Source of the DNA: Escherichia coli
GTDB lineage: Bacteria > Pseudomonadota > Gammaproteobacteria > Enterobacterales > Enterobacteriaceae
NCBI RefSeq assembly: GCF_048403405.1
Contig: NZ_CP183129.1
Length of the DNA stretch: 64,000 nt
Reading direction: 5' to 3' (one strand)
A model generated the notes under the pieces. It worked only from the letters and a program-made list of their open reading frames with translations, was not told the origin of the DNA and made no database searches. Of this stretch, positions 44,045 to 48,777 are shown in pieces (within the stretch, counting starts at the first letter, position 1; each line of letters opens with the position of its first letter). Made by a program: the position numbers and the translations under genes.

Positions 44045-44451
44045 GTGAAAAGGTGGTGTTCAGTCAACTGAGCCGTAAATTTATTGATGAGAACGATGCC
44101 ACGCCCGCCGAGGCGCAGCAGGTGGTCTATTACAGCCTGGCGATTGGTCACCACCTTGGGGTTATCGATTGCCTGGAAGCGGCGCTCACCTGTCCGTGGG
44201 ATGAATATCTGGCATGGATTGCCACTCTGGAGGCGGGCAGCGAAGCCCGCCGCAAAATGGAAGGCGTGCCGAAATATGGTGAGATCGTCATCGACATTAA
44301 CCATGTGCCGATGCTGGCCAACGCATTCGATAAAGCCCGGGCTGCGCAAACTTCGCAGCAGAAAGAATGGAGTACAATGCTGTTAAGTATGCTGCATGAT
44401 ATTCATCAGGAAAACGCCATCTATTTGATGGTGAGGAGATTGCGTGACTGA
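44041..44451 (+). CDS. hycH: Formate hydrogenlyase maturation protein HycH
   Basis: 136 aa ORF in the conserved position. Confidence 0.9.
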
Positions 44452-44914
44452 CGTTTTACTCTGTGTTGGCAATAGCATGATGGGCGATGATGGCGCAGGT
44501 CCGCTGCTGGCGGAAAAGTGTGCCGCCGCGCCGAAAGGTAACTGGGTGGTGATTGACGGCGGTAGCGCACCGGAAAACGACATCGTCGCTATTCGCGAAC
44601 TGCGCCCGACACGACTGTTGATTGTCGACGCCACGGATATGGGGCTAAACCCCGGCGAGATCCGCATCATCGATCCGGATGATATCGCCGAGATGTTTAT
44701 GATGACTACCCATAACATGCCGTTGAACTACCTTATCGACCAGTTGAAAGAAGACATTGGCGAAGTGATTTTCCTCGGCATCCAGCCGGATATCGTCGGC
44801 TTTTACTACCCGATGACCCAGCCGATTAAAGACGCCGTAGAAACCGTTTATCAACGACTGGAAGGCTGGGAACGGAATGGCGGATTCGCGCAGTTAGCGG
44901 TGGAAGAAGAGTAG
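44444..44914 (+). CDS. hycI: Hydrogenase 3 maturation protease HycI
   Basis: 156 aa ORF, last gene of hyc. Confidence 0.9.
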   Translation: MTDVLLCVGNSMMGDDGAGPLLAEKCAAAPKGNWVVIDGGSAPENDIVAIRELRPTRLLIVDATDMGLNPGEIRIIDPDDIAEMFMMTTHNMPLNYLIDQLKEDIGEVIFLGIQPDIVGFYYPMTQPIKDAVETVYQRLEGWERNGGFAQLAVEEE

Positions 44915-44970
44915 TTCGTAGACAAACATGTTCACGTTTTGGAATTTGGACGTGCAATTGTGACGTGTAG

Positions 44971-44999
44971 ACGGGTGTTTACATATTGTGAACACCCGT
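44971..44999. promoter_or_regulatory. Imperfect 29-bp palindrome upstream of the higB-like gene (candidate operator)
   Basis: ACGGGTGTTTACA-TAT-TGTGAACACCCGT, one mismatch between arms, 82 bp upstream of the toxin ATG. Confidence 0.35.
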
Positions 45000-45080
45000 G
45001 TGATCAACTACTATAGAAAAATAAATCCGAAGGAATGGTAGTCCAGGTTTAGTCATTCAGGCGCTAATAAGGAAGTTAAA

Positions 45081-45392
45081 ATGCACATCATTTCGAAAGC
45101 GCCATTTGAAGAGTGTGCGCGCAAATATCCTAACGACGCTCTGGCTCTACACTCATTGTATCGGGTTATTAAGGAAACGGATTTTTCTACACCAGAAGAA
45201 ATGCGAACGGCGTTTCCTAACCTCGACAATTTTAAATATCGCAACAAATGGTACGTTCTGGATGTCGGCGGGAACAATCTTAGGGTTATTGCCTACATAA
45301 ACTTTGTTAATAAGCGGTTCTTTGTGAAGCACATAACGAATCACGCAGAGTATGACAAACTGACACGTTACTACAGAGAGAACAAAGAATGA
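45081..45392 (+). CDS. HigB-like type II toxin (RelE/ParE superfamily)
   Basis: 103 aa ORF; resembles remembered HigB (FPNLDNFKY...VLDVGGNNLRVIA); AAGGAAG RBS; stop overlaps antitoxin start (ATGA). Confidence 0.8.
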   Translation: MHIISKAPFEECARKYPNDALALHSLYRVIKETDFSTPEEMRTAFPNLDNFKYRNKWYVLDVGGNNLRVIAYINFVNKRFFVKHITNHAEYDKLTRYYRENKE

Positions 45393-45808
45393 CTGCTAAT
45401 GCTGCACGCGCTGTTAAAGCAACAAGAGAACTGGTCAATGCAGTCCCCTTTCTGGGAGGCAGTGACTCAGAAGATGATTATCGTGAAGCACTGGAACTGG
45501 TCGAATATTTGATTGAAGAAGATGACACCAATCCACTTATCGACTTTCTGGCGAGCCGCATTGCAGAATATGAAAACAACAACGAAAAGTTTGCAGAGTT
45601 CGACAAAGCCGTTGCAGCAATGCCGGTTGGCGTGGCGTTACTTCGTACGCTGATTGATCAACATAATTTGACCTATGCGGATTTGAAGAACGAAATCGGC
45701 TCTAAATCTCTGGTCAGTCAGATTTTGTCTGGGCAACGATCCCTGACGATATCCCATATTAAGGCACTTTCAGCCCGATTTGGCGTTAAGCCGGAATGGT
45801 TTCTTTGA
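45389..45808 (+). CDS. HigA-like antitoxin (HTH)
   Basis: 139 aa ORF coupled to the toxin; C-terminal HTH-like segment (IGSKSLVSQILSGQRSLTISHIKALSARFGV). Confidence 0.8.
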   Translation: MTANAARAVKATRELVNAVPFLGGSDSEDDYREALELVEYLIEEDDTNPLIDFLASRIAEYENNNEKFAEFDKAVAAMPVGVALLRTLIDQHNLTYADLKNEIGSKSLVSQILSGQRSLTISHIKALSARFGVKPEWFL

Positions 45809-45886
45809 TTTTGACTGATGCCAAACCCAAGATTGCCCGATGCGCAACGCTTATCGGGCTTTCCTGGTTCGTGCGACGGTAGTTAC

Positions 45887-48777
<2,891 letters not shown>

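Follow-up and report, generated by a model that had tools for sequence, protein, structure and literature searches.

This report describes a two-gene module, higB-higA (higBA), located between hycI and ascB in a 64,000-nucleotide stretch of Escherichia coli DNA (contig NZ_CP183129.1 of RefSeq assembly GCF_048403405.1); this whole stretch is referred to here as the window, and positions are those of the window unless another allele is named. The module consists of a gene for a 103-aa putative toxin followed by a gene for a 139-aa putative antitoxin, and both the list of open reading frames (ORFs) and the sequence itself place the toxin gene first and show that the higB stop codon and the higA start codon overlap as ATGA. 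The genes at the locus are as follows.

44444-44914, + strand: hycI, the last gene of the formate hydrogenlyase operon; left flank, in the same orientation as higBA (ORF list, RefSeq).
45070-45075, + strand: Shine-Dalgarno sequence AGGAAG for higB, 5 nt before the ATG and kept in other E. coli alleles.
45081-45392, + strand: higB, encoding the 103-aa toxin of the HigB_toxin (PF09907) family, with an ATG start.
45389-45808, + strand: higA, encoding the 139-aa antitoxin/repressor.
45887-47311, - strand: ascB, encoding a 6-phospho-beta-glucosidase; convergent right flank (ORF list, RefSeq).

HigB matched the Pfam family HigB_toxin (PF09907; E = 4.6e-23, model positions 4-73 of 74) and, over its full length (residues 1-100), the solved structure of HigB from E. 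coli K-12 (5IFG_A; E = 7e-22). HigA matched HTH_3 in its C-terminal part (residues 85-138; E = 8e-9) and the solved HigA structure 5IFG_B over residues 9-138 (E = 2.5e-35). Because this homology to solved structures is full-length, the fold of both proteins can be considered fixed; HigA is thus predicted to consist of an N-terminal domain for dimerization and toxin binding and a C-terminal Xre-type helix-turn-helix (HTH) domain, HTH_3. The family matches and the ORF layout together are far beyond chance expectation. An earlier reading of the window, made from the letters alone (the sequence-only reading), had described a HigB/HigA-like toxin-antitoxin (TA) pair with the toxin gene first and overlapping stop and start codons, and both ORFs, the overlap, the HigB-family match of the 103-aa protein, and the HTH and antitoxin matches of the 139-aa protein all bear this out. 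It had also placed hycI and ascB side by side in K-12, without the two genes; this is the case, as the hycI-ascB spacer is 161 bp long in K-12 MG1655 and 975 bp long in the window.

Identical proteins (WP_000547555.1 and WP_000126294.1) are encoded at the same position in a 100%-identical genome in RefSeq, where they are labeled "type II toxin-antitoxin system HigB family toxin" and "helix-turn-helix domain-containing protein", respectively. In NCBIfam, the toxin had no family match and the antitoxin a weak, spurious one only, while PHROGs placed the toxin in a family of unknown function only and the antitoxin among generic repressors; no Rfam family was found within 44400-46400 at E ≤ 1. A literature search, including by protein accession, found no paper that mentions this hycI-ascB pair. 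By homology, the pair is an uncharacterized member of the SehAB-like branch of the PF09907 HigBA family, already recognized as such by automatic annotation. That it represents an intact chromosomal type II TA operon of the HigB_toxin (PF09907)/HigA family, SehAB subfamily, is the reading developed below, and we hold it with about even confidence.

The region upstream of higB contains putative control elements, which are listed here. Frequencies, here and below, refer to 5426 complete E. coli genomes, in which presence of higA, higB, or the 728-bp pair was defined as coverage of at least 80%.

44918-45080, + strand: window-type higBA leader/promoter region, without the gene orf251 that other alleles carry here; segment present in 343 of the 5426 genomes.
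44930-44946, no strand assigned: O1', a degenerate upstream operator copy, GTTCACGTTTTGGAATT (inverted repeat I1).
44977-44993, no strand assigned: O1, the predicted HigA operator, a 7-3-7 palindrome (GTTTACA-TAT-TGTGAAC).
44986-45014, + strand: predicted σ70 promoter, with TTGTGA (44986-44991), a 17-nt spacer, and TACTAT (45009-45014).

The leader is 163 bp long and begins 3 nt after the hycI stop codon. Outside the operator and the ribosome binding site (RBS), its similarity to the corresponding region of alleles with orf251 is only approximately 55%, in contrast to the higBA coding regions, which are at least 95% identical in nearly all carrier genomes; blastn comparison with orthologous loci and plasmids revealed no source for the window-type upstream segment beyond the operator. 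The 17-bp O1 consensus (GTTYACA-TAT-TGTRAAC) is invariant across 12 orthologous loci from eight genera, whose flanks are unalignable, and O1 is its sole match in the 64-kb window, versus 0.15 matches expected. In the window allele, the palindrome is extended to 13-nt arms (44971-44999) and overlaps the predicted -35 element (inverted repeat I2). We infer that O1 is bound by HigA. O1' is part of an imperfect direct duplication of about 27 nt (44918-44944 versus 44964-44991). Orthologues present TTGTAA-N17-TATAGT at the aligned position, with the TATAGT -10 element after O1, and in other genera a second palindrome, O2, is found at the transcription start and is absent from the window. When the leader RNA was folded, the O1 palindrome formed a 13-bp hairpin without a following U-tract, and the overall z-score was -1.95; two terminator-like hits of a consensus scan were within chance expectation.

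The same 7-3-7 geometry, GTTnnCA-N3-TGnnAAC, is common to the operators of three paralogous HigA-type repressors (44977-44993 in the window; L025:1690-1730, - strand, at the K-12 higBA locus; L028:2425-2480 at Salmonella sehAB). The central dinucleotide of the half-site differs among them, being TA in the window (GTTTACA), GC for K-12 HigA (GTTGCCA), and TT for SehB (GTTTTCA), which suggests that the paralogues are insulated from each other at the DNA level; this dinucleotide may represent a simple specificity code.

Taken together with what is known of homologues, these elements would allow the following regulation. A σ70 promoter overlapping O1 (44977-44993) would drive transcription of higB-higA, and the ATGA overlap would couple translation of the two genes. 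HigA would dimerize through its N-terminal domain, bind and neutralize HigB, and repress the promoter by placing its C-terminal HTH domain on O1. In K-12, HigA has been shown experimentally to repress its own promoter, and induction requires Lon (PMC2814082); if HigA of the window were depleted in a manner comparable to this Lon-dependent decay, free HigB would be expected to lower translation capacity and to slow growth.

The distribution of the two genes among the E. coli genomes is strongly asymmetric.

higA covered at ≥80%: 2508 genomes.
higB covered at ≥80%: 1091 genomes.
Both genes (≥80% of the 728-bp pair): 1091 genomes.
higB only: 0 genomes.
higA only: 1417 genomes.
Neither gene: 2918 genomes.

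The module is single-copy per genome and always chromosomal in E. coli. The complete pair is found in about 20% of genomes (e.g., Nissle 1917, strains of O121, O111, and O145, and the lineage of the window) and an orphan higA in a further 26% (e.g., an ST131 strain and an APEC O2:K1 strain). Zero toxin-only genomes, against 1417 antitoxin-only genomes, is what an active toxin predicts, and this pattern provides indirect evidence that HigB may be active. At least two independent deletions removed higB, and both spared the higA gene and its RBS; one begins within orf251 and ends 33 nt short of the higB stop codon (alleles L004 and L006, the latter from ST131), while the other extends from an O1'-like CACGTT to a CACGTT approximately 40 nt before the higB stop codon (L026, L027, and L009). 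The site homologous to O1' appears to form the left end of this second type of deletion.

Both genes, including orphan higA, are under strong purifying selection. Among E. coli alleles of higA, the proportion of differing nonsynonymous sites (pN) is 0-0.006, versus 0.03-0.15 for synonymous sites (pS), and higB of the window differs from that of allele L007 by no nonsynonymous change at a pS of 0.077. For orphan higA, the evidence comes from alleles that share a deletion junction, since these differ almost solely by synonymous changes (11 synonymous and one nonsynonymous between L004 and L006; eight and zero between L026 and L027; 19 and one together); recombination with paired alleles could contribute to this pattern. 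One alternative is that the pair is a decaying remnant that is kept by drift only, with a toxin that is attenuated or inactive in the window allele. Such a remnant would be in keeping with the species-wide decay at the locus (loss of orf251, loss of the toxin, and complete loss), with the loss of the second operator in the window allele, and with the five N-terminal residues at which HigB of L003 differs from the window protein (dN/dS of 0.41 for the pair). It is difficult to reconcile with the lack of any toxin-only genome among the 1091 carriers, with a HigB protein that is identical between alleles 7.7% different at synonymous sites, and with the intact state of all eight functionally tested residues of the Salmonella homologue SehA (see below), and we consider it highly improbable. 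The pattern of loss at this locus represents a clean natural experiment on the decay of chromosomal TA loci and on a possible gain of function by orphan antitoxins.

The sequence-only reading had interpreted the module as a strain-variable insertion of about 0.9 kb into a core locus. That the locus varies, with a size difference of about 0.8-0.9 kb, and that the module is absent from K-12 MG1655, are both correct, but the direction of the change is not supported by comparison with other alleles, in which the following features are relevant.

L003:1558-2301, L007:3058-3813, and L026:712-1467: orf247/251, absent from the window, where it would fall at about 44915.
45815-45818, no strand assigned: CTGA, the right-hand microhomology, where the scars of K-12 and O157 resume with sequence downstream of higA.
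45835-45859, no strand assigned: repetitive extragenic palindromic (REP) element GCCCGATGCGCAACGCTTATCGGGC, common to the window and K-12.

The fullest state of the locus is hycI-orf251-higB-higA, which is followed by REP elements and ascB in L003 and by a gene for a 142-aa hypothetical protein and hydN in L007, a B2 allele in which the asc operon is absent here. The product of orf251 is a hypothetical protein of 247-251 aa whose N terminus resembles a signal peptide (MCAFLLSLVLPAQA). An intact copy of the gene is present in 1462 genomes, while some 840 keep only a 61-aa N-terminal fragment, and alleles of the gene are only 85-100% identical in DNA among E. coli. PHROGs yielded no match for orf251 or for the 142-aa B2-specific protein. 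Nucleotides 1-30 of the K-12 spacer correspond, with a 15-nt gap, to the hycI-orf251 intergenic region and the start of orf251, while nucleotides 24-55 match the final 32 nt of the L026 orf251 region at all positions (32/32), and the two orf251 pieces are joined at a GGGATGT microhomology. The K-12 spacer therefore maps collinearly onto hycI-orf251-higB-higA and, at CTGA, jumps to the DNA just downstream of higA; O157 has the same two junctions. Because these spacers contain a fused orf251 start and end and rejoin at CTGA, they are deletion scars of the longer hycI-orf251-higB-higA arrangement. Alignment with K-12 and other E. coli thus does define two junctions (GGGATGT and CTGA), as ends of deletion scars instead of an insertion, and the window allele itself is a deletion derivative that has lost orf251.

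A recent insertion of a mobile TA cassette of roughly 0.9 kb into an ancestrally empty, K-12-like hycI-ascB spacer would account for the absence of the module from K-12, for the occurrence of related modules in unrelated surroundings in other genera and on more than 500 plasmids, where homology does not extend beyond the two ORFs, and for the lack of a match in representative genomes of other Escherichia species, and the short CTGA repeats that flank the higBA segment could be read as a target duplication. Against this, the K-12 and O157 spacers retain both ends of orf251, fused and correctly ordered (32/32 nt), and higA alleles diverge by 3-15% at synonymous sites between lineages, which indicates long residence rather than a recent spread. 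Moreover, the module is confined to one locus, where it is single-copy, and no E. coli plasmid carries it; the higBA segment contains neither a transposase nor an integrase, and it lacks terminal (inverted) repeats; and higBA is present in strains both with and without the adjoining asc operon. For the comparison with K-12, a recent insertion is already largely refuted, and in general it is improbable; higBA has most likely resided for a long time at a single locus, the hycI-ascB/hydN region, where it is vertically inherited and decaying. Methodologically, the absence of a gene from K-12 is not evidence of insertion.

The DNA adjoining the module varies as well. The window and O157 carry one REP copy in this region, while K-12 (L001) and L003 carry two, in an arrangement resembling the paired units of bacterial interspersed mosaic elements (BIMEs). 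In some strains, IS621, an IS110-family insertion sequence, is located between higA and ascB, in the REP-containing spacer (L027:2199-3179; H10 and H13). The ascGFB operon is absent at the locus in B2 strains (an ST131 strain, KE48, and GPEC102), in which higA is followed by an opposite-strand gene for a hypothetical protein of 142-145 aa and then by hydN-hypF (L006:2916-3873, L007:4703-5608, and L008; equivalent to window 45809 onward). The asc operon itself is therefore a presence/absence polymorphism adjoining the TA pair. KE48 (L007) is identical to Nissle 1917 over the orf251 and leader segment that was queried. Two contigs from metagenome-assembled genomes, L009 (JAIJJM010000690.1, "Collinsella sp."; gene order hycI-orf251-higA-ascB) and L020 (DXKH01000019.1, "Citrobacter sp."; gene order higA-ascB-ascF), encode proteins 89-99% identical to those of the E. 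coli locus and look like mis-binned E. coli DNA; mis-binned contigs of this kind also account for both 99% matches in the scan of genome contigs.

Orthologous pairs with 73-80% amino acid identity for both proteins and with the same overlap were found in Leclercia, Mangrovibacter, Kluyvera, Phytobacter, Yokenella, Pluralibacter, and a Citrobacter sp.; none of these adjoins hyc, asc, or orf251. Between genera, pN is 0.12-0.16 and synonymous sites are saturated. Toxin relatives with 60-80% identity are encoded on more than 500 plasmids, mostly of Klebsiella but also of Leclercia, Enterobacter, and Serratia, and a 77%-identical toxin is encoded by one Cronobacter phage or phage-plasmid record (JK004); nucleotide homology to the plasmid relatives is confined to the two ORFs. 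The sole "plasmid" match of more than 95% identity was NZ_CP134663.1 (H196 and H226), a 4.9-Mb E. coli record in PLSDB that is evidently a chromosome. These relatives show the subfamily to be horizontally mobile over long timescales, yet within E. coli it has long stayed at one locus; an ancient acquisition of the module by E. coli is plausible. Toxin loss is seen elsewhere as well; alleles of Kluyvera georgiana (L014), Serratia sp. DD3 (L015), and Phytobacter diazotrophicus (L023) keep higA with higB all or mostly gone, and in Serratia sp. DD3 the last 25 codons of higB remain, which echoes the E. coli orphan pattern. The plasmid and chromosomal orthologues of Enterobacteriaceae share the O1 operator and the gene overlap with the window, but they have two perfect operators flanking the -10 element and a short leader, while in E. 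coli there is a single operator and the leader is approximately 40 nt longer; in addition, the orthologues include plasmid copies, whereas the E. coli module is never plasmid-borne.

While the HigB/HigA-like label of the sequence-only reading names the right family, the closest characterized relative, which that reading did not see, is SehAB of Salmonella rather than HigBA of K-12; HigB is 58% identical to SehA (L028) and 39% identical to K-12 HigB. HigA is 45% identical to SehB and 46% identical to K-12 HigA. Alanine substitution of Y53, D61, H88, Y91, K93, T95, Y97, or Y98 abolishes the toxicity of SehA (PMC12817084), and in our alignment all eight residues are identical in HigB of the window, versus four of eight in K-12 HigB, which has N61, F93, V97, and H98 at the others. 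Dimerization and DNA binding of SehB require Y32, L42, L52, I60, S107, L121, L129, and F140 (PMC7160566); in a mapping made by hand from a BLASTP alignment, these correspond to Y31, L41, L50, I58, S105, L119, L127, and F138 of HigA in the window, and all eight are identical. The original description of sehAB (PLoS Pathogens, 2013) is flagged as retracted and was not relied on here.

A 2026 study reported that SehA lacks intrinsic RNase activity but binds the double-stranded-RNA-binding domain of RNase III, and that it blocks processing of the rRNA leader and ribosome assembly (PMC12817084). Because SehA is the nearest characterized relative, we favor RNase III inhibition as the mode of action of HigB in the window, although we would put this at about an even chance. 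The operon and its regulation would be unchanged if the toxin instead resembled K-12 HigB (YgjN), acting in the ribosomal A site and cleaving translated mRNA between the second and third bases of a codon. Membership in PF09907, a family described as mediating ribosome-dependent mRNA degradation (PMC11980606), and full-length homology to 5IFG_A are consistent with such a toxin, as are the finding that in vivo cleavage by K-12 HigB is restricted to translated mRNA (PMC2814082) and the invariance of R68, H88, and Y91, candidate catalytic residues by analogy with other RelE-type toxins, across HigB of the window, SehA, and K-12 HigB. Identity to K-12 HigB is only 39%, however, versus 58% to SehA; at positions 61, 93, 97, and 98, which matter for SehA toxicity, the window protein follows SehA; and SehA, the nearer relative, was reported to have no mRNase activity. 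A-site cleavage thus remains a serious candidate, although somewhat short of an even chance.

Several observations weigh against the reading of the pair as an intact, self-regulated, long-resident SehAB-type operon. The predicted higBA promoter matches 8 of 12 positions, which is just under threshold, and it was not called by the consensus scan. The window allele has one intact operator, versus two each in the orthologues, K-12 higBA, and sehAB, and its regulation may therefore differ from theirs. No terminator was found between hycI and higB, and neither a terminator nor an attenuator is claimed from the RNA fold; read-through from the hyc operon may contribute to higBA expression. The ancestral-state argument was drawn from a handful of sequenced alleles and from counts, not from a phylogeny, and the lack of a higBA match in representative genomes of other Escherichia species makes an acquisition within E. 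coli undatable. Finally, the RNase III mechanism comes from one recent study of a 58%-identical protein, while K-12 HigB (39%), the sole other characterized relative in the Pfam family, cleaves translated mRNA in vivo (PMC2814082).

With these points taken into account, the SehAB-type TA operon remains the reading that we prefer. It would represent a second HigBA-family module in E. coli, which is absent from K-12 and thus lies outside the experimental literature on E. coli TA systems. Since all residues shown to matter in SehA and SehB are kept, the module could serve as a test bed for whether RNase III inhibition is general in the subfamily, in a species in which rnc genetics is easy. More speculatively, and with clearly less confidence, about 20% of E. 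coli genomes might carry a SehA-type, RNase III-inhibiting toxin, and the orphan HigA found in 26% might act as a stand-alone regulator or protect cells from post-segregational killing by higBA modules with 60-80% identity, which are common on Klebsiella, Enterobacter, and Leclercia plasmids.

Three known systems resemble the pair to different degrees. HigB/HigA of E. coli K-12 (YgjN/YgjM; PDB 5IFG, 6KML, and 5YCL) shares with it the Pfam family, the gene order, the protein lengths, the ATGA overlap, and a HigA with an N-terminal domain for dimerization and toxin binding and a C-terminal HTH; the operator geometry is also the same, with GTTGCCA rather than GTTTACA as half-site. The two modules differ in location, as K-12 higBA is found at the fadH-rlmG locus (L025:929-1656) and not between hycI and ascB, and identity is only 39% for the toxin and 46% for the antitoxin. 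Of the 5426 genomes, 2825 have a complete copy of the canonical K-12 higBA locus and 1049 have no match to it, and further genomes carry a K-12-type higA beside a 5'-truncated higB (match to query positions 238-728); this locus likewise seems to decay toxin-first across E. coli.

PD-lambda-2 (Vassallo et al. 2022), which protects against lambda-vir (PMC9519451), also has a HigB-like first gene and a second gene that opens with a HigA-like domain, and PADLOC matched the two proteins of the window to PD-Lambda-2_A (PDLC03979; E = 1.2e-15) and PD-Lambda-2_B (E = 2.4e-14). These matches, together with the Cronobacter JK004 phage or phage-plasmid that carries a 77%-identical toxin, raise the alternative that the main function of the pair, as a relative of PD-lambda-2, is defense against phages by abortive infection, possibly with a TA role as well. 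In PD-lambda-2, however, the second component is the toxic one and combines an HTH with a C-terminal peptidase, whereas the 139-aa second protein of the window aligns with no more than positions 9-115 of the PD-Lambda-2_B model, which has 402 positions, and lacks the peptidase domain. A third component, similar to a P4 antitoxin, is required for defense (PMC9519451); no such gene is present in the window, where higA is followed by a REP element and the convergent ascB, and the locus is not a defense island. Membership in PD-lambda-2 was rejected, as both the peptidase domain and the third gene are absent; the PADLOC matches are explained by common ancestry of the toxin and the HTH, and a mainly anti-phage function is unlikely.

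Salmonella enterica SehA/SehB (STM4031/STM4030) shows the closest resemblance, being likewise a toxin-first operon with overlapping genes and a promoter that contains 7-3-7 palindromes of the form GTTnnCA-N3-TGnnAAC. SehB is slightly longer than HigA of the window, and the sehAB operator is present in two copies with GTTTTCA half-sites, while the window has a single intact copy with GTTTACA/TGTGAAC. In Salmonella, sehAB is flanked by yiiD and a gene for an alpha/beta hydrolase and lies near fdhE, whereas the pair described here lies between hycI and ascB; the two modules thus share architecture and operator geometry but not positional orthology.

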